Part shown: in pieces, positions 31,690-64,000 of the stretch
How the letters are laid out: each line of letters starts with the position of its first letter
Numbering within the stretch: the first letter of the stretch is position 1
Source of the DNA: a virus
Lineage: Duplodnaviria > Heunggongvirae > Uroviricota > Caudoviricetes
DNA: 64,000 nt
IMG/VR virus record: IMGVR_UViG_3300021254_000022
Location: 68,857 to 132,856 of that record
Strand: one strand, 5' to 3'
Notes under the pieces: model-generated
Told to the model about the DNA's origin: nothing
Database searches by the model: none
Seen by the model: only the letters and a program-made list of their open reading frames with translations
Program-made: the position numbers and the translations under genes

Positions 31690-31724
31690 AATAGCTTGGC
31701 CTCAATTAAGAGGCCTAAGCTATT
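31690..31724 (-). terminator. Stem-loop terminator after the 2252-aa gene
   Basis: aatagcttggcctc-aattaa-gaggcctaagctatt with one bulge. Confidence 0.6.
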
Positions 31725-34700: not shown

Positions 34701-37700
34701 TACCTAATGGTTTAACTTTTCCGAAGAATGCTACAATATCATTCATCTTATTAATCATACCATTGGCATTTCTTTCATCTCTAGTATAAAGATCATTTAT
34801 TTCAATGGTACTATTTAATTTAAGAATAAGCCCAATAATTGTATTTAAATTACGAGCAAAACCTTGCATTACTTGTAATTCATATTTTTCGCTTCGTTTA
34901 GCTAAAGTTACTGTTGGAGGAATTAATAATGCATTAGGATTCCAAGCAGACCCTTTCTTTAAAACGCCTGCCTTATCTTCATATACATAATACTATTCTC
35001 TTGTATATAAGGGAATATTATCAGGAATATTATCCGCTGTAACTAGAATATAATCTGCTGGCTAATCAGTAGGATGCCCATCACTATCTTTTTTATAAAT
35101 TATATTTCCCTCAGCATCTGTAACAGGAGTATAATAGGTATGAGATTGATAAAAGTTTATTTCTACTGGCTCTGGATCGAATCCAGGATCAACTAATTCA
35201 AACCATCCTTGTGTAGTAGGATTTCCTGTAGGATTTATAATTTTTTCATAAGTTAATTCATTATTATCTGATTTATAATAATCTTTACCACTTACAACTG
35301 TAGTATCAGAAGTTCTTATATAAATAGGTTCTTTAAAATAGTAATATGGAGCATTATCCGTTGAATATTCTGAATAATTATCAAGTATAATATTTCTTCC
35401 ATCTATATAATGATATATATGAGGAGAATAAAATTCAGTTACTTTTATAATTCCATAAGGTTCAGCATAATTAAAATTAACTGCTGATCTAAATGGAGCG
35501 TTTGGCGCTGGATTAGGATTTGCTCCAAAAACAAAAAATTGATCTTGAGTATCTGCACTAATAGGATCAATTTCACTTAAAGCTTTAACAAGTGAATATC
35601 CAGAAACTAAACCAGTAACAGGATCAAGAATTTGTCTATAAAAAGTATCTGTATAAAAAGCTGTTAAATGATATTTTTCACCCTCATTAATTATTACTTG
35701 ATTATCTGTGACAGGTATTAATTCTACTGTTTTTATGAAATATGTAACACCAGTTCTATAAGCATCATATGAAGGCCCCATAAAATCATAAATGTCTGTA
35801 GTATAAACTCCATCTACAGGTTCTTCTGCTCCATCTTTTAAAGTGCCAATATAGTAAACACCTTTTACATAAGTTTCTGCATTTACTTCAGTCGCACGTT
35901 CCCATCTTGTAATTTTATGATAAAGTTGAGCATTACCATTTTCATCAAGCTCAGCTTGTGTTTCTGCCGGTAAATAATATTCATCATGAGTTGGTTTTGA
36001 CTAACGATCTAAGTAATAAGCTCCATTTTGTTTATAATAATAAACGCCTGGAATATAAATTCCATCAAATAAACCATCTGCATAATCTGTAACTCTTATA
36101 GGATTCTTTAAAATAAAATAATCTCTATTCGGATCTGGAACATCTCCATTTTCAATTAAGAAATCTCTAGTAGAAGTTCTATAAAAATACTTTTTAGGTT
36201 CATATCCATCTGAAAGAGTTACAGGAATTAAATCTCTATTTATATCAATTTCAAAATACTTTTTCTCTGGATGATATTGGAGATCAGAAATATAATCTGC
36301 CATTCGTGGATTCATAGATCCATCTGCATTTAAAGCATATGTACTTCCATTAAAATCTTGATATAAATATCTATTTCCATCAAAAGATTGTAAATTTTCT
36401 TGTAAAGTAAAATCTTCTCCAGTTTCTAATCCTTTTTCATAATAAATAAGAGAAGGATCGTAATCAGTATTATGATTATTATCTTCTAAATAATTTGCCG
36501 CTGGAACATATTCATTAGTCTCAGGATCTATTACATAATAAAGATCTGGAATAAATTGTTCAGGTTTAATATCTGTAACTTGATTATATTGATAAGTTAC
36601 TTGTTCTGGCTCATAAATATATGTTAAATGTTTTCTCATATATTCATTTGTCGTAGAATTAAAATAAATTCTATTTTCATCAAGTGCAGAAATATTTTCC
36701 TATAAACTTTGATTTGAAGCTGGAGTAATAATCATTCCAATTAAATCATGAACAGTATTAATAGCGCCTGAAATTGTATTAACTGCTGCTTTATTATAAC
36801 TATGAAATTCCTAAGAAACAGGATCTTTACCATTCCCCTAACCTACTAAACGTAATCCTCTTCGAGATAATTTTATTTGAGCATCTTCCCAAGCAATATC
36901 TTGATTACGTCTATTTGAAGCAGCAATTGATTCATTTGTTTTTCTACCACCATAAATTAAATCCCACATTTCAGCCACTGCATCACCTAAAGCTGGCAAC
37001 ATTACGCTGAATTCTTGTGTATCTATTTGCGGCACCATATCAATTGAACCATTATGTTGATTATAAACGTGACCACTTTGACCCGAAGCGGTCATTTGAA
37101 TTTCATTTGTATTTTTCCATCCACTTTGGGCAATATTAGCATTATATTTACCAATATTTGCTTGATTAGGATCAATTATATCTAAACTATATGCGACTTT
37201 ATTTGATGAAAAACCATCTTTATTAAAATAGATAGCTGCATCAATATCAAATCCATCTTTAGAGACCATCCATTCACTTGCTTCTGGATTATATTGTTCC
37301 TATTGAATAGAAGTACCAAAATCATTAAAACCAGCTTCTGATGTCGGAAATTCTGCAGTCCATTGCATTTTAACATCAGAAGGATATAATTTTTTATCTA
37401 TCAATGAATTTCTCATTGGCATAGTACTACTATCCCCAGACACTAATCCGTTTGGATGAATATAAGGTCCTACTAAATCAGGATTTGCCGCTTTAATACG
37501 TGCGCCCCAAGATGCTGACATATGCATCAAATAATAAATATTTGTACTGGTTGTATCAAAATGAGGAGATGTAGGAACTATTTTTGGAGCATCTGCCGCT
37601 AATCCAAAAGTAGGAACAACGCTATTTAGTTCAGCAATCATTACATATTTTTCACGACCTGCTGTAAATACTTTTTGCCAAACTGTTGAATCATATCCTC

Positions 37701-38481
37701 TTCTTGCATCAGTATAAGAAGCTGTATCAAAAGCAAAATTCTTTTGATAAGGTGAATCATTATCATTTGTTAATTGAGTCCATTGATAATATCGTTTAGT
37801 AACTGTTTGATCATCAACAAGTTCTTCTTCTTCTGTTATATCATATAACATCCAATACTAAATATCTTCATTTGTACTATATTGATAGCCCGGCGCCAAT
37901 ATACAAACAGCCTAGTCTTGAACCCAATCTTCATAACCTAAACCAGGTCCTTTACTATTTGCAATTAAACCATTTTCTAATATTAAATAATGAGTTTCAT
38001 TAGACGTATTTAAAGTATCATATTCAGTACGAGTAATACTTTTTACTCTAAAGCCTCCATTTGCCGCCGAATCTTCAATTAATTGTTTATATTGAATTGT
38101 TTTTGGTCCAATGTCATAAATATTATGATGTTGTTTTATGACTGTGATAGAACCTTTTGGAATTCCTTCTATTGAAGAATCTGTAGGAGGAACTACTAAA
38201 GTATTTTGATCTATTTGAATAAATGGAGCAGCTAATATTGAACTATACATATTTCCATCTACACAATAGAAATCATAATTTTGAAAATATGGATTTGAAG
38301 TAGATACAAAATCATCTAGCGTAAATCCAATTGGTGCTTGATCATATTCAATAAGAACATACCGACCGGCATATACACCATCACTACCACAATTTAAATC
38401 CATTTCTGCTCTATTAGCATAAATTTTATCAAACTAAAATTGAGTTCGAGAAGTGTTCTTTATATTACCATAAAATCCCAT
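31723..38481 (-). CDS. Giant tail structural protein (2252 aa) with six tandem DxxGH modules
   Basis: Ten track ORFs share one frame and each ends at TAG. ATG at 38481 (MGFYGNIKNTSRTQF-TAG-FDKIY) has a GGAGG RBS; ends at TAA 31723. C-terminal fibre motifs such as FDSRYYTETEVD. Confidence 0.8.
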
Positions 38482-44970: not shown

Positions 44971-47900
44971 TTAAGAAAATGTGATAGTGGCTGTACCAAA
45001 ATCATCATCATCAATTTCTGTTACTACACTAGAACTCCATACTCCATTAGATAAAGTACCTGATGAAGTATCGTCTATAAATTCAATAGCACTAGAAGTT
45101 GTTGCACTTGCTGATACATCATATTCATGATCATATTTTCCACTATTATTATTATACCAAGTCATATTACCAACATAAACGTATGTAGTGCCGCCTCCAC
45201 CTCCAGAAACGGTACTAGAAGTTGTGGCAACACCATCTCCAGTTTTAGGATAACCACTTTGTGATAAAGAGATATGTATTGTATTTCCATCAACCCAAGC
45301 AGATCCATAAACAGTGCCGCCTCCTCCGCCAGCATGAGTAACAGTTGTATAAGTATAACCAGTTGGAGCTGTAGAAGATGTATATAATACTGGAGTTACA
45401 CTAATAGTTTTACTTCCTTTTATGGTTGCTTTAAACTTTTTTTTTAAAGAATTAGCAAATGCAAGTTTTTTAAGATCTTCTAATGATCTGCTTTCACCAG
45501 CTGCTTTAAATTTATAACTTAATTTTTCATCTTTAATAGTAACATTAGAAGTGCCAACGCTTAACATATTATCTCCACCTAATCCACTTGGCTAAATATG
45601 TAATTGTTTTCCTTGAATATCTCCAGTAGAAGTTAATTTTATAGTAGCAGTTGAACCTCCGACATTAACGCTATCTAATTTAGCAACACCTGCTTTAGTA
45701 ATACTATAAGTATCAGAATCTCCAAATTGAAGAGTATTATCCATTACCATTTTGGATTTTACTGTTATATTACCAGTACCATAACCTGCTAATTCTTTAA
45801 CGTTTAAAGCTTCTTTTAATATTAATTTATTTAAAGATCCTTCGCCATCTGATTTAAAATAGTAACTTCCTGAACCAGGAGAAGTATTTCCATTACCACC
45901 AGTACTACTTCCAATCCATAATGTTTTTGTAGAAACAAGCTCGACATCTGCTACTATTTTATCGTGAACAGAAAGACCTGTTTTTCCATTTCCTGCTAAC
46001 CAAATTCCATTACTTCCTGAAAGAGTTACAGCATTGCTTGAATGTATTTCAATTCCAGCACCACCTACACCTTTTCCTTGAGCATCTATGTAATCGCTAG
46101 CCCATTCTATCGAAGCTTTTTCAGCATTTAAAATAAATTTAGTAGTTATAGATGAAAAATTAGCTCCATCACATTTCCAACTACCAAGTCCAGTTCCTCC
46201 AGCGCCTCCACCGAAACCGCCAGAAACACCACCAGTTCCAAAACCTCCAGCAGTACCTCCAGTATTAGAAGCACCACTCATGGTGACTCCTGCACTGGTA
46301 GCATTTAAGTTATTGGCATAAACATTTCCATTTATTCTTAAACTACCATTTACAACAGCTTCTTGTCCACTTTCAGTAAGAACTATATCTCCACCTAAAG
46401 TTAATTTTCCATCAGCTCCACCTTTAACATAAGCTTTGCCTCCTGCTGTTTCTAATGCGAATCCAGTATTATTTAATACAAAAGATCCTTTTCCTGCATT
46501 TATATCAATACCCTTAGTAGCTTTTATATCAATACCACCATCTGTTCCAGAACTTCCATTCATATTAATATAATTATTAGAATTAACATGAAGATTGATA
46601 CTAGGAACTGAAGCTTTTCCTTCTATATAAACAGTTGAAGCATATAATTTAAAATATCCTTTTCCTGCACCTGAAGAAGACCCCTCTTTATTTGTTAGAG
46701 ATAAACCTGCGCTTCCACCGTATAAATCAACTGGTTGTCCGCCAGTAACATCTCCTCCTTTTCGCCCTGCTTTAAAAGAACCTTCTTGTTCAGTATTAGC
46801 ATAAATTTTTAAAGAACTTTGTTGAGCAGCATTTAAAGCATAATCTTCACGTCCTAATTCAATAGTTTTTGCATAAATAAAACTTTTTGAATCTGTATCG
46901 TCTAATAATCCAGCCTAAAAATTACCTGCTATACTAGTATTGCCATAAAAATAACTATCTTTAGTATATGATCTAAATATACTTCCTTCATCTGTAATAA
47001 CAGTAGATTTTTTTTGTGAATGAGCAGTAAAAGTATAATTTGTTGGTGTAGTTGTTCCAGCATTCGCCATACCTACTGTTAAATTATTTCCAATAACTAC
47101 ATTTCCAGATATTAATGTATTTCTATAGATTACTACTCCAAATTTTTTAACACTTGCATCATTGGCATTTCGATCAGTATTACTTGTTTTAGCAATAACA
47201 CCTATATCACTTTGCCAAATTCCTTCTTTATCACCCAGGTAAGTTTTACCAGTAACTTTTAATATACCATAAATTTTAGTATCAGCATAAAAAATAGCTT
47301 TATTAATAGTAGGAGATTCTGTTTCAGATGTTAAATTAATTTCTTTACTTTCTCCAACTTCTAGTCTTCCAAAAATATAACTATTTCCATTAATGACAGA
47401 ACGACCATCAAGAACACTTCCACCTTTTAAGAAAAATCTTAAATTCTTTAAATTTAAAGAAGTTCCTTTGGGTGTTGTAAAATATTGATTATAATCATAT
47501 TTGTAATCATTTAAAGCATCATCTGCTTTTGTCTTTAAATCTCGTGTCTATCTATTTCCTGTGTACATAGGAGAACTTGTTGTTGAAATAACAAAATCTG
47601 TACTAGATTCTTCAAAATCTCCAGAATTTGGTGTTTCTCCTCTTGGCCCTACGGCTTGTCCACGAGGATGCATTGCATATTTATAAACAGCAAAAACATC
47701 TCTTACGCTTAAACCATCTCGACCTAAATATACTCCATATGGACTAGGTTCACTAGATGCATAAAATGATTCATTATTAGACAACCAACCATTATTAGAA
47801 TATAAAGCCCAACTAGATATAGTAAAAGGTCCAATTTTACCTCCTTGATCAGCTTTTAAGTAATCAAGAGTAACTAAACCTTTCCAACTAACACTAAAAA

Positions 47901-50900
47901 GTCCACCAATCATAAAAGGTCTATCATAAAGCTATTTAGTTACCTTTTTAATTTTTGGTAAGCTTCCCGTCGTCATAGCTTCTAATTCTGCATCTGTTTT
48001 AGAATTACAGTCTGCAACTAATTGAGCTTCAACAGTTTCTGCATCATCTTGAGCATTTATATAATCATAATTAGGAATATAAGAAGTTACTGTCTTCCCA
48101 GTTACAATTTGATCAGTTGCGGCAGAATTTAAAACTATTCTTCTTGAATAGTCTTTATTTTTTAATCCAGGAGAATAAGCATCTATTCTAAAACTATAAG
48201 CTGTTAATAAACTTCCTTTTCTTGTAGTTCCAGTTACTTCACTAGTTAAATTTTCATCTCCATTTAAATTAAAATATAAACCTCTACCAATCAATTCACC
48301 ATTTGGAGCTTGATAATCTCTCGATTTAATGGCCCAAGCGCCTTTTCCAATATTAATTAAATCAAGATTTTTATTTATTAAAACTCCATTATCATCATAA
48401 GAACTCCAATCTGGATTATTACTAATTGTTGGAGTATATTGATAATGAATTTTTAAATAAGGTTGTCCATCAGATCCTATAGCAACATAAGAGCCTTTAT
48501 AATGAGCATCTTCTTCTCCAGTATCAATCATACTTAAAGTAAAATCATGTCCATAAAGTGCGCCTTTTGTTAAATCTAATAAAACTCCAGTTCCTGTTTT
48601 TGTTGGATCTATAACTCCTGTTTCAGTCCCTGCAATTTGAGTTTTTGTAAATCTTGATGGAATATAATTCCAAGATTGTAAATAAAATTCACTTTTTGAT
48701 ACTCGAATTAAATCTTTTTCAATTTTTTTATTTACATTTGGAGTTGCTACATTATAATTTTTATAAGTTTTTGTCTAATCAAGAGTTCCAGTTACTACTG
48801 TTCCATCCCAATCTTCGACATAAGGTAATAAACCTTTGTTATTTAAAATATTTATTTTTTCATTATCAGTATTTCTATAATGAACAGCTAAAAATGGATC
48901 TCCATTGCTATTTAACTCAAAATATGAATCTTTCATAGCTTTGGTAGCAGCATCGCCTTCCTATCCATTATTAACGCCTTTTAATTTAAAATTATATCCA
49001 AGAATATAACCATTCTATAAATCAAAAAGGAAACCTTCACCGTATTCATTACTTTCTTTAAATTCAGATAAAAATTCCTAAGTATATTTTTTCTAAGCAT
49101 CGCCTGTATAAATCTATTTTATAGGATAATAATCTAAAATATCATCTTTAACAGTTTTACCATCAGCTTTAAAAATTTCTCCTTTAGGAAATTTAAAATT
49201 ATCTGTTTTTAAATAATAAGAATCATCAGCAATATGAATTAATTTATTCTAATTCTATGACTAAACATAAAAATATGGATTAGTAGTAGATATTCTAATT
49301 CTACTTCTTGATGCAGTATACTATGGTTTAAAATGCTCATCATTTAATAATTGAGTCTATCCAATTTCTTGAATATATAACCATTTTTTCCAATCATCAT
49401 CATATTTTTCTGGATTAGAATTAAATTCATTTAAAATTGCATCAATAGCATTTATAGACGGATTATAAAGTAAATTACTTTTTTTCTAATATGCAAGTTT
49501 ATAATTTTGATCAACAAAATCATTAGCGATAGTCTATTGTATTTTTGTTTTTTGAGCATTTAATAAAGTTTTTTGTTTATTTAAAGCTTGTACAATAGTA
49601 GCATATACTGTTGTAGTTTTTGTACTTGATTCTAAATCTATAAACTAGATTCCTGATAAATTAGCACCTTTAATATCAACTAATCCATCATCAAGATCAA
49701 TTAACATACCAGAATCTGCTTTTCTTGACAAACTAGCAATTTGTCCAGAATTACCATCAAATGTGATTTGTCCTCTATCAGATTTACCAATAAAAGCAGT
49801 TCCATCTACTTTAAATCCAAAACTTTGAACACCTTCATTGTATCCATATAATCCAAGAGGAATAACACTTTCAGATGTATTAGAAGTAATTGATGCAACA
49901 TCACCCATAATAACGCCATTAAAACGATTACGCTCATCTTTCATGCCGGCGCCCATTAAACTAGATAATATTGTACCATTTTCTTCATCTATACTCAGAC
50001 TGCCATCCCATGAATTTAATAATGCTGAAGTATAACTATTTTGATATATGTATAAAGGCTATGTCCAAACTAAATTATTATTTATATAACAATTAACAGC
50101 AATTTGTTTACCATTACTTTTTATATAATAAGAAGCTGGTATTAATTTATTATCACTTGATAAAGTTGGATAAAATTTCTTAAAATCATTTGCATTTTGA
50201 TTTGAAGTAAAAATTCCATCCATACCTGCCCCATAAGATATTTCCCAACGAACTTGATTAGTTATCTAAGTAGTTGTCCTATTATTATAATTGTAAATTT
50301 TATAAGAATTTTTATAATATTTAGGATTTATTCCTTGAGCATCATAGGAAATTCTATCGGCTCCATCAACACTTGTATAAATAATACTTGAACGTACAGG
50401 AATTGGTAAATATGTATCTAAAAATACCTATTTTCCATTAATATTAAAAGCTTGAGTAATTGAAGCTTTTAATATATGATATTTACATTTATTAATATCA
50501 TCCTATGCTTGAGGCATTGAAATTACTTGATTTCTTGAATTATTTCTTGTATCAAGATTTAAATATCCAGAATTTGGACCCGGGCTATACCATTCATAAT
50601 GAATTTTATCTGCTGGAATTGTATCAATAATATCATTTCCTTCAAAATTATATAAATGAGGAATGATTGTTATTTTATCTTTTATTTCCGTTCCTAGCTG
50701 TGTAGTAATAGCAGGTACTTTTCCTTCAATCTCTAATTCAAAAGAATAATCAGTTCCATTTGTTCCAGTAGGACCAAATGATAAAGTTGCTTGTGCTTTA
50801 TATACTCTATTATTTTTCCGAACAGTGCAATAAATAGTATTATTTGAATTTGCTTGAGTATAAAAATCTTTTACTCTAAAGACTTGACCACTTGAGCTTG

Positions 50901-53310
50901 GCCATTCGATTCCTTCTTCATGAGGTTCAAAACTTTCTCCAAGTCTAGTAATATCAATATAACCAGCCTATTCATTTATCGCCCAAGACTCAAAGCCTTT
51001 ATAATAATATTTAGTATTTTGTTGCCAATTTGATCCTGACGGAACAGCGTTATACTTTTTTGTATTAGGATTATAAGTATAAAGCTATCTATCACAATTT
51101 ATAAAATCTATAGCAACCTAAATATCTTTAGCTTCTGTATAAGCAGAAAATTCTATTTCTTCTTCAGGCTTCTAAATCATTGTATTTTTAGTAGGAATAC
51201 GCCATGTAATAGATTCAATTTTATCATTATTTCTATCACCCGACATTAATGTATCCCAACTAGCAGTTATAATACGTTTTTTCTAACTTTCTTTTTGGCT
51301 GATTATTTGTCCATCATCATCGTAAATTCTATAGTTACCTTTATATCCATCTTCATCTACAGTTAATTGTAAAGCGTTTGCTAATTCTAAAGTAGAATAA
51401 TCTGGAGAGGCATCTTCATTCGTAAAAGATAAAATTGCACTATAATATTTTTTTCCTGCAGCTAATCTAGATTGAATCCGTTCAATAACAATTCTTCGAG
51501 AAGAAATTTCACTATTTAAATTTTGTTCAACATCTAAAAGTAATCTACGATATTTTTTAGTAATATCATTTGCCGCAGAATCACTACGTTTTAAACCTTT
51601 TTCTGCTAATTCTGCTTCATAAGCAGCTATAATAGAATCAATTTCTGCATTTAATCCTTCTGCGCTAAGCCGCTGTGAATAATACTAAATTTCTTCTTCT
51701 AATTTAGTAATACCTAATATAACCCAATCATAAAAAGTATATCCAACTAAATCGCTTCCAATACGTGGATCATTTATTATTTTACGATAATATTTTCCTG
51801 CTGCGGTATAATTTGCTGCAGATGTATAAGTAATATCAGTTGCATCATAAGTATATAATGCACCATATTGCTCTTTTAAATCCTCAAATTGAGTTCTATT
51901 TTTTACTTCAATAGGATAATAAAGTCCTTTAAAATAATCTTCAAAAGGTTTTTTATTAGTTTCAGTATTTACAAATTGATCATTATAAATCGATTCAGCT
52001 ATTTTTTCCTATGCAGGGACTTCTATAATAATTTTAAATAATTGATTAGGTGATTTTATATCTGGATCAAAATTTAAATATTCAAACTTATTTTTATAAT
52101 TTGTAATTTCTTGCCAATAATTTCCTGCAAGAGGATCATTAATACCTTCCTAAATAACTTGTTGATACCAATGAACAACCACTCCTTCTGTAGCAAAATT
52201 ATCTAAATAATTTTCATATGCAACTGCCTCTTCTTCATTTACGAAATGAATCCAACGACAATACATATTTTTTCTATTTAAAAGTTTAAGCCATTTATTT
52301 TGTTCATTTTCACTATTATGTATCATTACTTGAGCTTGAAGTAATTGTTCATAATTATTATTATAATCTTCTAAACGGAGAGAATCAGCAATTAAATCTT
52401 TTTTATCATCTGTTAAATAAGAAGCATAAGTTGCAGAATCTAAAGTATATAATAAAATAGTATCTTCTGAAAATTTATCTAAAGAATATCCTAAACTAAT
52501 ATATATATTATTTACAAATAAATTATCTATATTTATGCCATCGGCTGAATTAACAAGTAATTCATTTTCTGAAATTCTAAAATCATTACCTTGATAAAAA
52601 GTAAGAGTCATTGACTCTATACATTCCATTTCAGAAATATCAACTACTTTTTTCTAAGTATAATAAGTCTCATAATTATATGGATCGCCATAAAAATCAT
52701 TAGTATTTAATACTACTGAATACAATTTTTGACTATTTTGAGTCTAAGTCGTACCCATAGTTCGAGTAACGATATCTAATCTTAATCCATATGTGCCTGC
52801 GCGCACTCCCAACTCTTTCAGCCAACTTTTAAAATCTGCTTTAATAGCTAGTTTATCATATCCTTTAAAATTTCTACCTGCAATTGACCAAATAGTTTTT
52901 TCAGTAATATTACCGTTAGCTTTTAAACTTGCCGGAAGTGTTTTAATGTCTTTTGTTATGATATTTTTTGTAATATCAATAAAAGATTTCATAGGATCTA
53001 CATAAGTGAAATGTTCACTATCATCTGTTACATAACGTCCTACTATAATCTTTTGTTTTGAATAATCATTTTCAACAACAGTTACTAAAACTACAGTTCC
53101 TTTAGAATAATTCGTATTATCTGAGAAAGCTTCATATGTACTTGACCCATCAGTTACAATATATTTTCCAATTGAACTATCTGAGGCATCTATGATGGTA
53201 GCAGTAACTGTTTTATCGTAAGTTAAAGCTTCAATTCGTTTACCTATAATTAAATCTAAAGCAGGTAAAACATTCTACATCGCTTCTGGAATAGATTGAC
53301 TACTTGCCAT
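44971..53310 (-). CDS. Giant tail-tip / central spike-like protein (2779 aa)
   Basis: Seven track ORFs share one frame. ATG at 53310 has an AGGAGG RBS; ends at TAA 44971. N-terminal OB-fold-like segment (TVTATIIDASDSSIGKYIVTDG); Gly-rich beta-repeat region GLYGYNEGVQSFGFKVDGTAFIGKSDRGQITFDG. Immediately follows the TMP. Confidence 0.75.
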
Positions 53311-53422: not shown

Positions 53423-56400
53423 TTATTTTGATTCATTAGCATATTGAGCTGCCAAATTAATAAGTCCATCGAAAGCTTCAATAATTTCAGTATGATCTGT
53501 TGCATTTGGAAATTCTGCTGTAATAGTAACCTATTGTTCTAATGTTTGTTTATTATTAAACATTCCACTAGATGATGAGAATAATCCACCCATAAATTGA
53601 CTTGCTGTTAAAGCATTTAAATCAATTATTTGAGAAATTTGTCTTATCATTCCAACAGCAGAAAGAAGATTTTCAGTATCTTGAGCATTTAATACAAGTT
53701 CTTTTTCATGTAATAATGCCAATTTGCCTTCAATACTATTCCAATTTCCGGTATATCCTCCACTATCAAGAGAGGCTAATGCTTTTTTATTAGTTTCTAA
53801 ATCTTTCTGTCCTCTTGCGTCTTGTTCTTTTAATTGTCCTACATAATTATTAATATATCCCTAAATATATTTTTTAATAACATCATCAGAATCAACATAG
53901 TTTTTCTGGTCAGTATTTAAACCTGCATCAGCAATCTAATCTACTGTTAATTTTTTTGCAGTAATTTCTTCAGTTTGAATTCCTGAAGAAGTACTACGAC
54001 TCTTTCTAGATCCATCTAAATTGCCTTCAGCCTCAATAACTTTTGCAATAGTATCAATTAGTAATAAATTTGCTCCTATTGTTTTTGTTACTTGTTCAAC
54101 ATAATTTTCTGCAAAATCTGCTGCTTCTTGAGCAATAGTTCTAAATGAATTTTGATATGTTTTAGATAAATCTTCTGCCGCTTCAGCTGCTTTATTAGTC
54201 TAATCAACAATACCATCTTCTCCATTTAAATTTTCTATTACATCTTCACCGAAGTTTTTAATAGAAGTTTCTCCATCATTTAAAGCTACATCATTCATAT
54301 TCATAGCTTCTTGATAAATTTTAATAGCTTCTAAAACAGCAGTAGATAAGCCAGTAACAAAAGCCTCTTGAGAATCTTTCATTGATGCAAAACCAGTTAA
54401 AACAGAATATTGAGTTTCAGTAAATTTATCAAGATATAGTTCATCTGCAGAAATTTTATATCCTGTCATTTCTGAATATGCTTGCCATGCTCCAGTATAT
54501 AATTCTCTATTATTACCAATAGCATTTCCAATTTGCTGCTCATATTCCTATCTTAATTGAGTATAATCGTCTTCAATTCGATGTACTGCATCCATATATT
54601 CTTCCATACTTGCAAAATCAGCCATATTTAATGCTGCAATTGCATCACGACATTCTTGATCTGCTTGAATAATCTAATCTTGTAAAGATTTAATATAATC
54701 AGTATTTAAAACTTGCATTTCATGAAGTTTATCTTCATAATTCTGTTCTGCATCAGCTACAGCATTCGCATCAGCCGTATAGACATATCCATAATTACCT
54801 TCAGCATCGCGCATCATTCTAACTTGAGATTTTGCATTACGGGATTCTTCAAGTTCATCTCTTGCTAATTCTATTTCATATTTTTTACGAAGGACATCCA
54901 GATCATATTGTGACATTTTTACGCCATCTTCATTTGCTGCGTTAATTTCTTGTTGTAATTTCTTTAAAGCTTGTTTATTTTTAATTTGATCTGAATCATC
55001 AATAGAAGCTTGAACTTCTCTACTTAATTTACTTAATTGATAAATTTTTTCATAATCTTCAACATAAACATCAGCTATTTGTTTTTGTCTATTATATTCT
55101 TCTGATAAAGCACTTAAAGTTCCCATAGAACCAGCAATACTCTATTCAAAATGCATTACAATAGTATCTAAAGCATCAACAAAATAATCTTGTGCTGCTT
55201 GGACTTCAGCTTCCCAAGATTCTAACCAACTCTATTGTGCAGAATTCCGTTCTTGTGTTATTGTATCAATTTGTTCTTTAAATTTATTAATTTCTTCACT
55301 ATAATCTGCATCATTAAGAGATTCAAAATAGCGTTTTTTCTCTTCTAAATCTGCTAAAGAACTTTCTAAGAAATCAAGTTGTGATTTTAAAGCTGAAGTA
55401 TTTGCTCTCTATTGATCAAAAGCAGCTTTGGATAAACCTTTACTTACTTCTCCACTAACATCTAATACTTTTTTACCAACAATACCAATAATATTTTTAT
55501 AAGTTTGAGTAAATGCCATAAGAGTTGAAATTTTTTCAGTCTACTAAGCCAAATTATTATTATACTTATCAAATACTTCACTTAAATTTGAGTACATCTA
55601 TTCACGTAAAGCTCTTTGAGATTCTAATAATCCCATTAAACTATCTCGATATTCTTCAAGAGTAGCAACTTTATCCGCTGTAAATAGATCTGTATTAACT
55701 AAAGAAGTTAAATCATCTTCATTCCATGTACCAGTCATTAAACGTTGCATTAAACTATTATCAACATCTCCTGTTGAGTTAATTACATCTCTAATTCCAT
55801 CTTGATAATATCCTAATTCTTCATTATATAATCTCATTTGTTCAGACATATAAGCTAAACGATCTCCAAAAGTATCTGCAACATCTCCTAAATTATCAAG
55901 ATATGCTTCTAAAGTTTTTAATACATTATCAGCAATCTAAACTTTTACTTGAACAGTGTATTGAGCTTTTTCAAGCATTAAATCATAAATTTTATTAGCA
56001 GTTTCCTAAATAGAATTTCCTAATTCATCCATAGAAGTTTCAGTTTCTTCAATTTCAGCTATATCTTCATCTAGATCATCTTTCCATTGACTTAAAGTTT
56101 CTTCTCTTCGATCAGCAATTAATTCTTCACCTTCATAAACTTTATTAGCAGCATATTCTCTCTAATCATATTCAGATTCAATTCCTTCTTCTTGAATTTC
56201 TCGAATAGTATCTATATAATGTTTCTTTTCATCATATACTTCTCCAGCTACACGGATCTCTTCTTCATGAGCATGATCTGCTGCTTGTTCTAAAGATTCA
56301 AAAGTATAATCAATAAGATCATTTTTATCTTCATAAAATTCTTTTATTCTATTCTAATTATTTTCAAATGCTAAATCAGCATCTGCTTGACTTCTATCAA

Positions 56401-59400
56401 ATTTATTATTAGCTTTATCAATACTTTTATCCCATTGATCTTCTAATCTTTCTATTTTAGCATTATATGCTTTACCTTTATCTTCACTGACTTCTTTTTC
56501 TGTTCCAACAGGAGTAGAAGCATTTACTACTGAAATATTTTTTGCCTATTGTAATTCTTTTTCTTTTTTCTCAACTTCAGCTTTAGCTTTTTCAATTTTT
56601 GATTGATTGCCTGTTTTTTGAGCTTTGACTAAAGCTTTATCTGCTTTTTTCAAAGCTTTTGATGCTGATTCTATTTTTTCATCTTTTTTTGCTTGAGTTG
56701 TACTTCCAGTTGCTTTGTTCCATGCTTTTTGAATTCCTTCATTATATGCAGAATCTGCTTTAGCAACATTTTTATTATAATTATCTACAGCTTTTTCCAT
56801 AGATTCATTATATTCATTAATACTTTTCTATTCAGCTTTTTGTTGATTTTTTGCTGATGTTACTCTATCTTTATACCATTTATCTGTATTATCTTTATTT
56901 GCTTTATTTCGTTTTTCATCTGATGCTGCAACGGTTGTATTATAATTATCAGTAATTTTATTCATATCTTTATTATAAGAGTTCATGGTTTTTATCATTT
57001 CATTATTATAATCTTTTGTTGCACTATGCATCTCATCATTTAACTTTTTAATATTTTCATTTCTTTGATCTATAATATCTGATTGTCCTTTATTATATTT
57101 CTCAACTTTCTTTGACTATAAAGTATTATAACCAGTTAAATATCCTTCATCACTAAATTCTGCGCCTTCTTTTTTCAATGATTTCTATAATTGTTCTCTT
57201 CTTGCAGCCTATTCACTATATAAAGTCTTTTGCATTTCTAACTATTTCTTTAAAGCTGCTGCTTCTTCATCAATAGCATCTAATCTAGCTTTACCAAAAG
57301 CTCTTTCTTTTCTTTGGCTAATTCCTTCTAAATTAGTAGCCATTTTTTGAAGTTCTTTATTTATATCATGATAACGGTCTATTTCATCACGTAATCGTAA
57401 AAAATAAGATTGATCTTTAATAATATATTCTTTATCTTCATAAACTTTTTGTCTATCTTTACTATATCTTTCATTATAATATTTTTTACGATCTGTATAT
57501 TCTTCATCTTTATAAGTTTTTCTATTAACTTGCTATCTAACTGCATCTGCTTTTTTATAATCATTTAGGTATTTTTGTGCTGTTGATTTATTAGCTTCCA
57601 TTCTAATAGTAGTAGTCCTTGGTCTTTCCTAACGACCACCACCACCTTTATTATGTGCTAAAACTTGGTTGGAACCTACATAATAATTATGATTATTTGA
57701 TACTTCAAAATTATATACGACTTTAAATTTAACATTAACATCAATCTAAGAAATTGTATATAATTCACCACTAGCAAGTAATAATTTATCTCCAACTTGC
57801 AATTCTGAAGCAGGAATCCATTTATTATTATTATCACGATTAATTAAAAATCTATGAATTCCAGTAACTTTTATTTTTTCATTATTAACATATAATGTAT
57901 AAATTTCATCTTTAGTAAAATGAATCATCGTTTGAAGAACTTCACTGTATTCATTTTTCATAGTTTTTTCATTATAAGAAAGAACTAAATCTCCAGCTTG
58001 AATATCTTCAATATTTTTATAACCATTTATTGTTGAAATTGGAGTGCCTGCAACGAAACAACTTCTACCTTTATTATGAGCAAGAATTCCATTTTTCCCA
58101 ACATAATAATTGTGATTATTTGATACTTCAAAGTTATAAACTATTAATTGTCTAATATCTATTTTTATACAATAAATTTTATGCCAACCATAATCTGCAA
58201 ATTGAACTAAATCATTAATTTGTAATTCTGAAGCAGGAATCCATTTCTTTTCATTATTACGATTAATTAAAAATCTATGAATTCCAGTAACTTCTATTTT
58301 TTCATCTTCTATATATAGGCTATAAATTTCTTCTTTAGTATCATGAATAAAAGTTTCAAGAACTTCACTATATTCATTTTCTTCATTTTCTTCATTATAA
58401 GAAAGAACTAAATCTCCAACCTAAATATCTTCAATATTTTTATAGCCATTTATTGTTGAAATTAAAGTACCAGCAACAAAACAACTTCCTCGGCTTGCCG
58501 GTTTATTACTACCACTCTTATTGGCACTAGAAATATTACCTCCGCCGGTGTGGTTAGCATTAGATACTTCTACTGCAGTAGATGTATTTTCTTTATTAAC
58601 GGTATCAGTAATTTTATGAGGCTATGTATGAATTTCATCATAACCTAATTCAAGAGTTTGAGTTTGCCATTGAATGGAAGGAATACCCATAGTTCCTTCA
58701 CCGAAACCAACTGTCGGTAAACTTACAGAATAAGGATGAGGAACATTAGTGACATCCCAGCCTTCGCCTTCAACTTCATCTGCAGAAGTATCTGTCTATT
58801 GATTTACTTTTGCATTTATTCCTAAAGCATCAATTATTGCTTGACCCATTGGAGGCATCATATTATAAATATTTTGACCCAATTGTTCAAAAGCACTTTG
58901 TACAGTTGAAGTTTTTTCTACAATAGGTGTAACATCACAATCAATACCCATATTATGGAAAATTGCTTCAATTTCGTCTGCAGTATATCCAGCTTGTGAT
59001 AAAATATTTGCATATTTAGTTAAAATAGCAGTATCATCAGCATCTAATTCTCCTTCTGGAAGATTCTCTAACCAATCAGAAATAAGAACTTCATCTTCTC
59101 CAATAGTGGTAACTAATGGAGTATCATTTGCCTGCATTTCTAATTCAAGACCTTCAGCATATTTAATCTATAAAGCATCTATTGCATCTTCATTACCATT
59201 CATAGCTTCAGTAATAAGATCCATATTTTGAGCTAAAAATTCTGCACTTACTGATGCGCCATCTTCGCCACCAATTAATTGAGAAACAGTTTGACTTAAT
59301 GCGCTTACATTATCTTCCTAATCATATAATAATGAATTAAATGCTTCAATATCATTACTTTTATAAGCTTCATTTAATTGAGACAGAGTACTTGAATAAT

Positions 59401-62400
59401 CTTCCCAATTTTTTTGTAAATCTGTAACTGCTTCATTTGTAGCGATATAACGTGCTGCCATTTGAGTAGCTACAGATGCATTTTTAGATGCTGCGGCATA
59501 AGCTTGATTTCCATTTTTGCCTAATTCTTGATAACGTTTTGCTAAAGCTTTAACTTGAGATTCTTCTACTTTATATTTTTTAGAAACTTCTGCTGCTCTT
59601 GTTGCTAATTCTAACTACATTTTTGTAGATTTTTTAGCTTCAGAATTATTACCTCTTAAAGCTCTTTGATATTGCTGTAATTCTCTTGAACAACTATCAT
59701 ATTTAGAAGCTACTTTCATTAATGCTTCAGATTCTAATTGTAAAGCTTCCTTTTCTCCAACATGGCGACCTTTTAGAACTCCCAATAAAGATTCAAAATC
59801 TTCCATATTATTGCAACAAGCTGCAATACTTCTTGCATTTTTACTAAGAGTTCCTTCCATTTGATTCATTCCCACTAAATAATCAAATAAAATTTCAGAA
59901 GCCTGTTCTGTAGTTATCATCCAATCTTCAGTATTATCTCGAAGTTCTATTAATTTTTCAGTATATTCAGATTGAGTCAAAGAACCGGCTTCAAAAGCTC
60001 TATTCATATTTTCAAGATTTTCTGCAAAAGATGCATTTTCATCAAAATTATACTAAAAAGCTTCTTCTGTTTTATCTGCAAAGTCTTTAAGATCTAATCC
60101 TACATCTTCTAATTTTAAACCATATACTTTTAATGCTTCTTCTGCGGCAGCTAATTTATCATTAGCCTCTCCTTCAATACCATCAAAAACATTTTTAATA
60201 GCATTTCCAAGAGCTTGATAATTATTAGCACTAATTTCTTCTCCTTCTGGAGCAAAAGCTTTTACAATAGCAGGAAAAGCTTCTTCAGCAGCACTTTTAA
60301 TATCTTTATGAACTGCTGTAACATCTGCGCCATAGTTTTGCCACATTTTATCTGTAGCTTCCCCCTATGTCTAAAGTTCTTGTAAAGCTTTACCTTCTTC
60401 TTCTAATGCTTTTAATCTTAAATCATCTGTTGCCGTATCATCTTTAGAAATTTGAGCAAAACCCTTTTGACGTTCTTTAGGATCTTCTACTTGTAAGAAT
60501 TTATCAAATTGTTCTTGTGCAGTAAGAGTATCTTTTGTCAACTTTAAATATTCTTCAGCATCAAGTTTTCCTTTTAATAATGCTTCATTTAAAGCTTCAA
60601 TAGACTCTTTTGTCGTAACTTCATCATGACCCAAAATTTCTTTTAAAAGTTTTTCATATGCTTCTGCTGTCATGCCACTATCGTCTATATGACTACGCAA
60701 ATCATCAATAGACATTGTAGTAGTATCAATACCTTCAACAGCCTTTTCCCATGCAGCTTCTCCCATAGCTCCACGAAGTTCTGTATTATTTAGGTCATCT
60801 ATAGTAATCTAAACTTTGTTTGTATTATCAGCAAAAAATTTAGCTTTACTATCAGCATCTTCTATTGCATTACCAATAGTTAAAAATTGATCAGGATTTA
60901 ACTCTGAAATTTTATTTTTAATTAATTCATAACTATTTGCGACATCTTTTAATTCAACAATGCCATCTGCCCCAGGGGTAATTTTTTCAATAAAATCATC
61001 AGCACCAGAAATTTCATTTACCCAAGTTCCAATATCTTCTAAATAAGATCTAACTTGCTCAAATTCTTCAGAATCCTTAGGAATAATTCCTTGTTCTACC
61101 CAATATTTTAATTCTTTAAAACTTTCTATTCCATTTAAAAATTCTGTTGATAAAACTGTATTATAATTTTTTACAGTCTGTACATAATTTTTATAAGCTT
61201 CAGAACTTTTATCCCAAGATCCAGCTGTTGAAGATAGTTCTTGATAAAAACCTGAAACATCAGCTCCTGCATTTTTTAAAATTTCAACTTGTTTATCAAA
61301 ATTATCAGCTTCTTCTTGACTAGTTAATCCTGAAAATAAAGATAATTTTTTCTCTGATGGAAGATCTTCTAATAATGTTTTTTGTCTAGCAATATGTATA
61401 GCTTCAGATAATTCATCAGCATCTTTATAAATTTCTCTAGTTCCGTTCTCTGTTTCTCTTGAGAACTAATCTAAATCAATTCCAGTAGCTTTTAATAAAG
61501 AAATTTCTTCTGAAGATAAAGTATCTCCATTTTTTAAATCTCTACTATCTAAAGTTTTCCAAGCATCTGTAATTTGTTGAGCAGCATACTCAGCATTAAT
61601 TTCTGCTTCTTCTGCAACCTAAGTAACTTCTTCACCATATTTTTCGACATCAGCATATAACTATTGAACAGCTAAATCGTCTTCTAGCATTTGATCTCTT
61701 GCGGCATCCATATCCTCTTGAGAATAAGCTTTACCCTAACTATTCTATTGTGCAGTTTGCATTCCTGTATATTTAGCACGAGACTATTTTGCTGTTTCTT
61801 CAGCTTCTGGAATTAAAACATCTTTAGTATATTTCTATAAATCTTCAAGAGTCTTTTTAGTACTTTCTAAATTTTGAATCTAAGCATTACTTAAATCATT
61901 TTGTAATTTTTCTAAATATGCAACTCTTTCTGAATCTTCCATTTTCAAAAATTCAGAGAATTTAATAATAGGCTCTTCCATTCCTTCAATGGTTTCGCCC
62001 CAAGAAATATTACTATCAGTCTAAAATTTTCTTAATTCAGAAAGAGACATTCCGGTCTTAAATTTAGAATTATCTAAAGCATCAATATTTTGACCAATTT
62101 TATTAGCATTTTCTTCATTATTAATCTATTCATTAATTAATTTACTTAATTCTTCAACTTCTTCAGCAACTGCTTGAGGATCTGTTTTAAATTTAATTTT
62201 CATTCCTGCAGTTAATTCAATTTTATCAAAAGCAGCCTAAGCTTCTTCAGACAACATATTATATAATTGTCCAATTTCAGAAGAGTCCCAATTATCTGCC
62301 GCATTTTTAACTGCATTTTGTACTGTAGAAATTACTCCTGAACCAAAATCCTGATATTTTTGAATTCCAGCATAATAATTATCAATAATTGCTCTTACTT

Positions 62401-64000
62401 CATCATCAGTTTGATCAGCATAAGCTCCTACTTCTCTTAATTTTGCTAAAGTTGTTTCAACTAATTCAGCATAATCATCTTCTGATTTAACTTTTCCTTC
62501 AAACTATTTATCTATATCCCTAATAGTTGATTTTCCTAAATAAGAATCTAATTCTTTCTATAGATCAATAACATTTCCATACTCATCTTCAATTAATTTT
62601 AAATAATCCCCTAATTCTTTCCATAATCTATTATCATTTAAAGCAGCAGGATTCTCAGTATTTGCAGCAACTTCATCTTGGATAGCTTTTACTTTGGCAT
62701 AACTTTCAATAATACCATCAATTCCCTAACCTTCAATATTTAACTATAGACCACCTTTTTCAAAAGTATCTGTCTCATAGTCCATATTTAAATTATCTAA
62801 TGCAGTTTTTATTTCTTGATTAACACTATCTTCCCAATTATTACCGTCGCCATCAGTAAAATGTAATTCAAAAGTAAAAGCATTATCTAATTGTGCTTGA
62901 ATTTCTTTATGTAAAGAAGCCCATAAAGTATCATCTTCAGATTTCATTCCTAAATCTGTAAAAATAGTCTAAAAATCTACATCTGCTACCATACTATTGA
63001 GCTGTTCTTCTGTTATGCCTGGAGTCTGTTCTCTCCAATACTGCTTTTCTTGTTCTATTAATTCATCTAACTATCCTTGATATTTATCATAAATATTTTT
63101 TAAATTATCATATAATACGCCATAAGATTTATTAGTTTCATCATTAATAAAATCTCGAAACTGTGCAATACCCCAATCCCATCTTGAAGTATCAATTAAC
63201 TAACCAGAAGTATTTACAAAAGAATCTGAAGTCTAAACTTCTGCTATTAAAGCAGCATCGGCTGTATTTTTTGCAGCCTAAGCTGTTTTTACAGCTTCTT
63301 CAAATTTAGCATCTGAAACATTTAATATATCTGAAAGAAGACCCTGATAATCTCCTCTCATTACTTTAACAGCTTCACTTTCTAATCCTAAAGCTTTTAT
63401 TACTGCACTTGCAGCTTCAACTAAAGCTGCTCTTCCAGTTCCAGTTTCCTAAAAAACAGTTAAACAATCTTGATAAGTTTTAATTAAGTCTTCATTAGCT
63501 TCCTATTGCTTCTTAGTTTCATCCCATTCTGTTTTATACTTTTCAGCTACTTCTTTTGCAACTTTAGCATTTTCTTCTAATGCTTTCTAATTATTTCTTG
63601 CTGCAGCTTCATTAGCCGCAAAAGCTGCCGTTAATGCTCCAACAGCAACAACAACAGGTAAGATAAAAGGTGCAATCGGAGCAATTGCAGCTCCTAAACC
63701 TGCAAAAGTTCCTGTTAAACTACTTAATGCAGCAATAGAATTACTAAATTCCATTGTTCGTTTTAATAGATTTATAACAACAATTATTGCTCCAATTGAT
63801 GTAACTATTTTCTAAGAATTTGAAGCACTAGAATCTCCTAATGTGGTAAATAAATTTGTTAATCCAGATAAATAACTAGAAAAACTCATTAATAAAGACG
63901 TACCTTTACCAAACATTTTTGACCATGATCCTTGAACCTATGGAGCTTTGCTTACAATTGTATCAACATTTTCTGCCAAAGATCTTAATTTAGCCTCTAC
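53423..64000 (-). CDS. Tape-measure protein, 5' partial (>3525 aa), containing two tandem Hint domains
   Basis: Twelve track ORFs share one frame. Long Ala/Glu/Lys coiled coil, hydrophobic segments at about 63620-63880, roughly 11-residue Y/W periodicity at 56300-57050, C-terminal GYTG...LALLHEKELVLN motif; TAA at 53423-53425. Confidence 0.88.
57650..58060 (-). mobile_element. Hint domain copy 2 (BIL/PT-HINT-like, 137 aa) inside the TMP
   Basis: CFVAGTPIST...VTGIHRF...VYNFEVSNNHNYYV...LAHN; the +1 residue is Lys. 94/137 aa identical to copy 1 by manual alignment. Confidence 0.9.
58073..58483 (-). mobile_element. Hint domain copy 1 (BIL/PT-HINT-like, 137 aa) inside the TMP
   Basis: CFVAGTLIST...VTGIHRF (block B TxxH)...VYNFEVSNNHNYYV...LAHN; the +1 residue is Lys. 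Confidence 0.9.

Follow-up and report, generated by a model that had tools for sequence, protein, structure and literature searches.

The 64,000-nucleotide (nt) stretch of DNA analysed here, called the window throughout, belongs to a tailed phage of the Caudoviricetes (IMG/VR record IMGVR_UViG_3300021254_000022) and corresponds to bases 68857-132856 of a parent contig of 156,391 bp. On its minus strand lies the greater part of the gene for a giant tape measure protein (TMP), and within that gene stand two tandem Hint domains with the features of type-A bacterial intein-like (BIL) domains. Under the standard bacterial code the region is split into short frames, while under code 15, in which TAG specifies Gln, it forms a single minus-strand frame. 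The complete TMP comprises 4304 amino acids (aa) (protein P0122, L001:283-13194) and has 84 in-frame TAG codons; its ATG start is preceded by an AAAGGAG ribosome site. The gene, the two Hint copies and their immediate surroundings are arranged as follows:

53423..64000, minus strand: the part of the TMP gene within the window, 3525 of 4304 codons plus the stop, open only with TAG read as Gln
Past the window end, on parent contig G000:C1 to base 135193: the 5' part of the TMP gene, its first 779 codons
58484..58549, minus strand: N-side flank, a conserved TGGGNISSANKSGSNKPASR motif followed by Gly-Ser at -2/-1
58073..58483, minus strand: Hint/BIL copy 1, from Cys1 to His-Asn, 137 aa (TMP residues 2619-2755)
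58061..58072, minus strand: inter-copy linker Lys-Gly-Arg-Ser, whose Lys is at +1 to copy 1 and whose Ser is at -1 to copy 2
57650..58060, minus strand: Hint/BIL copy 2, from Cys1 to His-Asn, 137 aa (TMP residues 2760-2896)
57596..57649, minus strand: C-side flank, KGGGG followed by RQERPRTTTIRME

Read along the TMP, the order is ...NKPASRGS, a 137-aa unit running from Cys1 to His-Asn, KGRS, a second 137-aa unit of the same form and KGGGGR..., with 423 nt from the start of one copy to the start of the next; the frame, period, unit length and junctions at 57650-58483 are those read in an initial annotation of this DNA. Its estimate of about 69% identity between the copies agrees with the measured value (94/137 residues, or 68.6%, with 77.6% identity in nucleotides). 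Both copies contain Cys1, block B as VTGIHRF (T-x-x-H), block F as VYNFEVSNNHNYYVG and a terminal AHN, both are followed by Lys at +1, and a copy of 137 aa leaves no room for an endonuclease; the annotation had correctly noted these motifs, the Lys at +1 and the absence of an endonuclease. The insertion sits in a low-complexity linker of Ser, Thr, Pro, Arg and Gly at 61-67% of the TMP chain, and the protein continues for 1408 aa beyond copy 2, close to the 1400 or so first proposed. There is one in-frame TAG in each copy (58421-58423 in copy 1 and 57746-57748 in copy 2), so that the Hint domains are intact only when read with code 15. No third Hint was revealed when all 156 kb of the genome were scanned in six frames.

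Recoding is supported by the parent contig, which has 27 tRNA genes, one of them with anticodon CTA; this tRNA, labelled Pyl by ARAGORN and located outside the window at G000:C1:20170-20259, is likely the reader of TAG. Contigs of independent metagenomes also display a TAG/CAG polymorphism at window position 57535 (the Gln codon at 57533-57535, minus strand), which is direct, population-level support for TAG being read as Gln in this phage. That the Hint domains reside in a genuine TMP, as first claimed, is indicated by the match of residues 148-486 to TIGR01760 (tape_meas_TP901; E 6.7e-32, 111 bits against a cut-off of 28.8) and to PF10145 (E 6e-25), and by the match of the C-terminus to phrog_4211, 'tail length tape measure protein' (E 2.7e-12). 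The protein has the family domain, the position in the structural module, the long helical body and the conserved C-terminal end of a TP901-type TMP; genes for the portal, TerL and virion proteins lie upstream of it and a tail protein gene lies downstream.

The annotation had suggested translation with code 15 and a search with Hint profiles, and in that search all three families named pass their cut-offs. Pfam PT-HINT (PF07591) matches two stretches (E 3e-36, 125 bits against a cut-off of 27.7), as do Intein_splicing and Hint_2; NCBIfam profiles for the N- and C-terminal intein regions also match within the TMP, and a weak match to Hom_end_hint is confined to about 30 N-terminal residues. The nearest solved structure by sequence is the Clostridium thermocellum BIL 2LWY, which aligns end-to-end with copy 2 (phmmer E 3.6e-20). 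An AF2 model of the tandem, built from 24 tandem homologues, consists of two all-beta domains with disordered flanks (mean pLDDT 79); its best Foldseek match is again 2LWY (TM 0.91, root-mean-square deviation 1.6 A, 39% identity), followed by the Tetrahymena BUBL BIL2 (TM 0.76-0.80, 28-29% identity) and then by mini-inteins and Hedgehog. The features of type-A BILs are all present, that is, a Hint fold of about 130-160 aa, Cys1, a block B of Thr-x-x-His, a C-terminal His-Asn, no Cys, Ser or Thr at +1, and placement within a variable stretch of the host protein, whose homologues carry the domain only sporadically. Those of class 1 inteins are absent, given the Lys at +1, the disordered linker as insertion site and the lack of an endonuclease. 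The PF07591 profile is shared with polymorphic-toxin modules, yet the C-terminal toxin and the secretion or trafficking N-terminus of such modules are missing; profile scans matched no toxin family in the 1408 aa after the Hints, and the N-terminus is a TP901-type TMP domain. On these sequence features both domains are type-A BIL Hint domains, as the annotation had held in pointing to the non-nucleophilic +1 residue, and both are predicted to be catalytically intact.

Domains of this kind are common in giant TMPs, with at least 120 metagenomic examples that have 1-3 copies. A search restricted by size returned 182 giant proteins of about 2000-5500 aa, and in nearly all of the best 120 of these PF07591 occurs together with the TMP domain PF10145; 84 of the 120 carry one Hint, 31 carry two and five carry three in tandem. 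Cys1 and His-Asn are retained in all 158 full-length domains from these 120 proteins, and C1, T66 and H69 are invariant in the homologous domains that were aligned (157/157). Pairwise identity averages 60%, and 97% or more of the domains share the block B T..H and block F. The residue at +1 is Lys in 157 of the 158, usually followed by Gly, and the residue at -1 is Gly (79) or Ser (74) in 153. Inside arrays, where linkers are 2-6 residues long and begin most commonly with KG, His-Asn followed by Lys is kept at 41/41 internal junctions, and copies within one protein are merely 54-73% identical, with no block A, B, F or G residue lost from any. This pattern points to strong purifying selection on the catalytic residues, internal array junctions included, and agrees with the earlier view that both copies are maintained.

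The insertion site is nearly constant across these proteins: ...SA(N/H)KS(S/A)GG... precedes it, ...(E/D)RYH...DRAFGK... follows it, and poly-Gly flanks it on either side. The part of the TMP after the Hints has a median length of 1101 aa (interquartile range 1048-1167), against 728 to 4184 aa for the preceding part. A second recurrent site lies directly before the C-terminal GGYTGxW...LHxKELVLN module, roughly in the region of the known trimming of lambda-type TMPs; it is occupied by the second Hint in P0062 (3132-3278) and P0086 (3117-3263) and by the sole Hint in P0120 (2982-3118). At this C-terminal site the Hint of P0086 has Met rather than Lys at +1. The corresponding landmarks in the present TMP are these:

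57350..57379, minus strand: DRYHDINKEL, the beginning of the conserved coiled coil 3' of the linker, with the (E/D)RYH...DRAFGK motif that almost every Hint-bearing TMP has after its Hint site
53741..53761, minus strand: GGYTGNW, a conserved C-terminal TMP motif common to the homologues, about 110 aa before the TMP end

A profile-free search run exhaustively over 1.84 billion cluster representatives found 5,367 proteins at E<=1e-10 and 20,391 at the looser threshold of E<=0.001, and many of the best 150 carry arrays of 2-6 contiguous Hints. The +1 residue varies in this wider BIL family, being Lys in 99 of 207 domains of the best 150 proteins. Hosts of such arrays other than TMPs include a subtilase-PKD protein, a laminin-G protein and proteins composed almost wholly of Hints; because arrays occur in unrelated protein contexts, tandem repetition is a general habit of the family and not specific to TMPs. 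In the metagenomic proteins P0265, P0372, P0256, P0245, P0251 and P0284, 3-6 contiguous BIL-type Hints are often separated just by K, KG or KGG. The initial annotation knew of no described tandem-Hint TMP; we too found no publication describing one, but such proteins are not rare, given the 31 double and five triple arrays among 120 giant TMPs. Among 50,697 phage records, megablast with the TMP gene returned no match, a search of IMG/VR for related loci with the C-terminal 526 aa gave no confirmed relative, and tblastn against isolated phages detected only distant Hint matches, all in proteins unrelated to the TMP (Ruminococcus NatCom phages, Erwinia jumbo phages and Campylobacter RNR inteins). 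Proteins consisting of the C-part alone, as would follow from a gene split at the Hint site, were also sought; only five weak partial matches came back, and, as this search works through shared words, they speak neither for nor against such a split.

The relatives of the TMP present a different picture when they are sought by the sequence downstream of the insertion. With the 1405 aa after the Hints as query we obtained 229 TMPs, the best 120 of which were examined; 118 of these were new, and none of the 118 has a Hint. The closest of them (P0103 and P0123-P0131) share about 39-45% identity over 71-100% of the C-part, and both flanks of the insertion align to Hint-less TMPs up to the insertion site. 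On the N-side, the flank aligns with ...GGNISxxNxxGGNKPxxx in Hint-less homologues and with SA[NH]KS[SA]GG in Hint-bearing ones; on the C-side, RQERPR aligns with RQSAPR, RESTP or RASAPR in Hint-less homologues. In the multiple alignment, ...GGNKPxxx and R(Q/E)SxPR are separated in Hint-less TMPs by just a short linker of Ser/Thr/Pro/Arg(/Gly). The linker of the closest Hint-less relative, P0103, is STTPRSRSGSP, 11 residues long, and removal of both Hints from the present TMP would leave GS, KGRS and KGGGG, also 11 residues. The comparison of homologues proposed in the annotation has recovered both Hint-less and single-Hint TMPs at this linker.

When 220 TMPs are placed on a tree by their last 950 aa, P0122 is the sole Hint carrier in a clade of 11 with 100% support and in a clade of 67 with 99% support, and over the whole tree only five changes of state are required to explain where the Hint is present. 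The Hints of P0122 are nevertheless 60-72% identical to those of TMPs whose C-parts share merely 25-33% with it. Since it is a lone carrier within a strongly supported Hint-less clade, the Hint cassette looks laterally gained. The simplest history suggested by these sequences is acquisition by recombination from a distant Hint-bearing TMP; loss of the Hint from all sampled relatives would be a less parsimonious alternative, subject to the bias in how the homologues were sampled. The proposal that the Hints constitute a special, built-in maturation switch of this phage is not supported, since the nearest TMP relatives do without a Hint at the site and the position of the only carrier points to lateral gain.

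The tandem state appears to have arisen after arrival. In a tree of all 158 Hint domains copies 1 and 2 are mutual nearest rows (SH-aLRT 91, in a group that includes the single Hint of P0078), sister copies from the same protein also occur in P0011, P0018 and P0006, and older shared duplications lie behind other arrays (P0026-32, and P0002-5 with P0016, P0019, P0020 and P0022); one-copy and two-copy proteins are interleaved. The topology indicates that the tandem is a lineage-specific, in-place duplication. Between the copies dS is 0.50 and dN 0.22 (dN/dS 0.44), and replacements cluster at residues 98-120, the loop that in inteins holds the endonuclease. A special role for the tandem, as originally suggested, is hard to sustain when the duplication is lineage-specific and similar duplications recur in unrelated BIL-bearing proteins. 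Taking the two trees together, we consider lateral origin followed by duplication in place to be a probable history for this cassette.

We propose the following account of how the cassette behaves. A unit of the form GS-[Hint]-KGRS-[Hint]-KGGGG would have entered the disordered linker between modules of an otherwise Hint-less TMP lineage. After translation each Hint copy would fold, and Cys1 would undergo an N-to-S acyl shift to give a thioester on the small residue at -1 (Ser here, Gly or Ser in the family). The terminal Asn would then cyclise, cutting the chain before Lys+1, and the freed amine of Lys+1 could attack the thioester, re-joining the flanks with no need for Cys, Ser or Thr at +1. 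Excision of both copies would leave the 11-residue scar GS-KGRS-KGGGG, while thioester hydrolysis would be an expected side reaction, yielding a 2618-aa N-part and a 1408-aa C-part. Each step has precedent in type-A BILs, which form the Cys1 thioester, cleave at the C-terminal Asn, and can ligate their flanks when the freed amino group attacks the thioester, as described in PMC4031507, which cites Dassa 2004, Aranko 2013 and Amitai 2003. The element would be a self-removing passenger and not a device that the tail needs.

Several considerations suggest why such a passenger should retain its chemistry. Catalytic integrity would be kept because a ruler from which the 15-kDa knob had not been excised would be harmful; moreover, three 15-kDa knobs at each level of the array are unlikely to fit side by side in the lumen of the tail tube, and so the Hints must be removed. 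Tail length is set by the length of the TMP, so that an insertion in mid-ruler that only cleaved would be costly. Given that a lineage with an uninterrupted ruler tolerates the insertion and that all junctions are kept, we infer that excision with re-ligation by the Lys+1 amine is the productive outcome and that cleavage is a side-path. Our confidence differs between the parts of this account. That the cassette excises itself is highly probable; that the productive outcome is re-ligation rather than cleavage we regard as evenly poised; and the account as a whole, of a laterally gained, locally duplicated, self-removing BIL cassette in a TMP linker, is in our judgement the best explanation and a reasonably likely one.

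A number of observations sit uneasily with this account. One set of homologues was selected by similarity to the Hint and the other by similarity to the C-part, so the sampling is biased. The large clade of Hint-bearing TMPs inherits the element vertically, given the five state changes among 220 TMPs, and always at the same linker, as would equally be expected of a selected function. Two or three copies are present in about 30% of carriers, intact despite divergence to 54-73% identity, although additional copies reduce the yield of an element that is obliged to splice. The equal length of the 11-residue linkers may be coincidence. Finally, according to PMC4031507, cleavage products dominate over splicing for characterised type-A BILs in vitro.

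These points lend some weight to an adaptive reading, in which the Hints effect a protease-free maturation cleavage of the TMP into its 2618-aa and 1408-aa fragments and their separation is itself selected, for example because the C-part alone serves as the ruler or because the parts are released separately at ejection, with extra copies raising the chance of a cut. The predominance of cleavage reported for type-A BILs (PMC4031507) and the lack of Cys, Ser or Thr at +1 are as this reading would expect, and multiple copies, a burden for splicing, offer redundancy for separation. The element occupies an identical site in more than 100 divergent TMPs, and the length of the C-part is tightly constrained where that of the N-part is not. 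Hint-less relatives might achieve the same end through protease cleavage of their Arg/Pro/Ser-rich linker, and the TMPs of lambda and T5 are known to be processed. The reading is kept alive chiefly by vertical retention at one site within a large TMP clade, together with recurrent retention of extra copies. However, the closest relatives are Hint-less, and Hint cleavage is therefore not needed in this lineage, while a recently gained cut in mid-ruler would leave the covalent ruler at about a third. Mere separation does not require that the junction residues of every copy, internal ones included, be conserved, and plain hydrolysis offers no role for an invariant Lys at +1. We consider adaptive cleavage possible but rather unlikely.

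The lysine itself invites another explanation, that the Cys1 thioester is attacked by its epsilon-amine, whether of the same TMP chain or of a neighbour, with the result that an isopeptide bond links the two halves or covalent cross-links form within the TMP trimer. This would account for the excess of Lys+1 at the TMP site (157/158 domains against 99/207 in the wider BIL family), for the Gly or Ser at -1 and for the poly-Gly flanks, and the Lys-mediated chemistry raised in the annotation has a published precedent in the second-closest structure, Tetrahymena BIL2, which is reported to form an isopeptide bond through a lysine epsilon-NH2 during splicing (PMC8616854). The present data do not separate alpha- from epsilon-amine attack, though, and the lysine could instead assist Asn cyclisation or be the founder trait of a single clade; for this phage we think the explanation improbable. 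In a broader form it would make the TMP-linker Hints a phage-tail BIL subfamily whose signature, Gly or Ser at -1 and Asn followed by Lys-Gly at +1 and +2, reflects enzyme-free epsilon-amine ligation, giving an isopeptide-joined ruler or three cross-linked chains, and the tandem copies would then install several isopeptide bonds; this too is doubtful, if perhaps marginally less so.

Of the weakest explanations, canonical selfish mini-inteins of class 1, or a PT-HINT module that releases a C-terminal toxin, are suggested by the Intein_splicing, PT-HINT and NCBIfam intein-region matches and deserve very little credence, and we reject them, as the +1 residue is Lys and not Cys, Ser or Thr, a homing endonuclease is lacking, the insertion occupies a disordered linker and not a conserved active site, and what follows is 1408 aa of TMP coiled coil that includes the C-terminal TMP motif but no toxin domain. 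Inactive structural domains retained in the mature TMP are equally implausible when the catalytic residues have been lost in 0/158 domains.

Nor is the tandem an artefact of assembly, which the annotation had named as a result that would count against it. Repeats are prone to mis-assembly, and contigs from public runs break at words common to both copies; but the copies differ at 22% of bases, the same arrays occur in homologues, and the Hint region is tiled at >=98% identity (that is, at least 98%) by contigs from four independent sequencing runs of four studies, in each of which a 290-nt piece (57841-58130) spans the junction between the copies. We therefore reject this explanation, which retains a negligible probability. 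Ten variants were seen within the two Hints over the four runs, five synonymous and five conservative replacements, and none affects a catalytic residue. The public runs X2, X3, X5 and X6 hold DNA at least 98% identical to window positions 57300-58800, some of them labelled bovine gut; run labels, where given, are bovine-gut or other metagenomes, and the phage is widespread across animal gut samples.

Elsewhere in the window the following features were read from the sequence:

63614..63799, minus strand: two hydrophobic, transmembrane-like segments in the N-part of the TMP
44971-53310, minus strand: giant gene downstream of the TMP, 2779 aa under code 15
31723-38481, minus strand: giant gene, 2252 aa
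21533-28849, minus strand: giant gene, 2438 aa
7437-18035, minus strand: giant gene, 3532 aa

Two of these giant proteins, of 2779 and 2252 aa, were scanned, and they have no Pfam or PHROG match at E<=0.001. Directly upstream of the TMP start, at the usual site of tail assembly chaperones, are genes of 174 and 387 aa (L001:13326-15074); the former matches only PHROGs without known function and the latter has no PHROG match.

The structural features of the TMP Hints have analogues in three known systems. With the type-A BILs (Amitai 2003; Dassa 2004; Aranko 2013; 2LWY) they share a Hint fold of about 137 aa, Cys1, a block B Thr..His, His-Asn, the absence of an endonuclease and of Cys, Ser or Thr at +1, and residence in a variable, non-conserved region of the host protein. 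They differ in that the host is a phage tape measure protein, with one fixed linker used in more than 100 giant TMPs, in the near-invariant Lys-Gly after Asn and Gly or Ser before Cys, and in forming arrays of 2-3 copies spaced by 2-6 residues. The BIL2 of the Tetrahymena thermophila BUBL locus (PDB 6Y75 and 6TMM; Chiarini 2021, as described in PMC8616854) is likewise a BIL-type Hint from a locus with repeated BIL domains, for which the amine of a lysine is reported as the nucleophile that gives an isopeptide bond. That account describes BIL2 as flanked by ubiquitin-like domains, which it conjugates to targets, whereas the TMP Hints are flanked by TMP linker with four residues between copies. 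Canonical inteins in actinobacteriophage TMPs are also self-excising elements of Hint fold within a TMP, but as defined in the study that describes them they belong to class 1 or class 3, which splice through a +1 nucleophile (bioRxiv 10.1101/2025.01.02.630785), while here there is Lys at +1, no endonuclease and a disordered linker.

Processing of the tail ruler after translation has precedents in the conversion of lambda gpH to gpH* and in T5 pb2. Those cuts fall near the C-terminus, in contrast to the present site at 61-67% of the chain, although the Hints of P0062, P0086 and P0120 do precede the C-terminal motif; the lambda and T5 cuts are not known to be the work of a Hint domain. BIL domains have been described before, along with their chemistry, and so have the canonical inteins of actinophage TMPs. 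What is new is the mid-ruler Hint site, the arrays found there and the phylogenetic evidence for lateral gain; our literature searches turned up only the canonical inteins of actinophage TMPs, and nothing on BIL or Hint domains that occupy one set linker in giant TMPs, on an invariant Lys-Gly signature or on tandem arrays at that position.

The processing of TMPs in tail assembly and DNA ejection is poorly understood, and inteins and BILs underlie protein-ligation tools. For annotation, the ruler gene and its inserts in TAG-recoded phages can be read only with code 15, and predicted tail length is best computed with the Hints removed. For this phage the evidence points to the Hint cassette being a tolerated passenger, and to the single locus carrying moderate weight while the family is of higher interest. 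The Hint population at one fixed linker of the giant TMPs of gut phages, with its near-invariant lysine, is large and apparently undescribed, and if that lysine is indeed the ligating nucleophile, these domains would represent a natural, compact ligation module that leaves no cysteine in its product.

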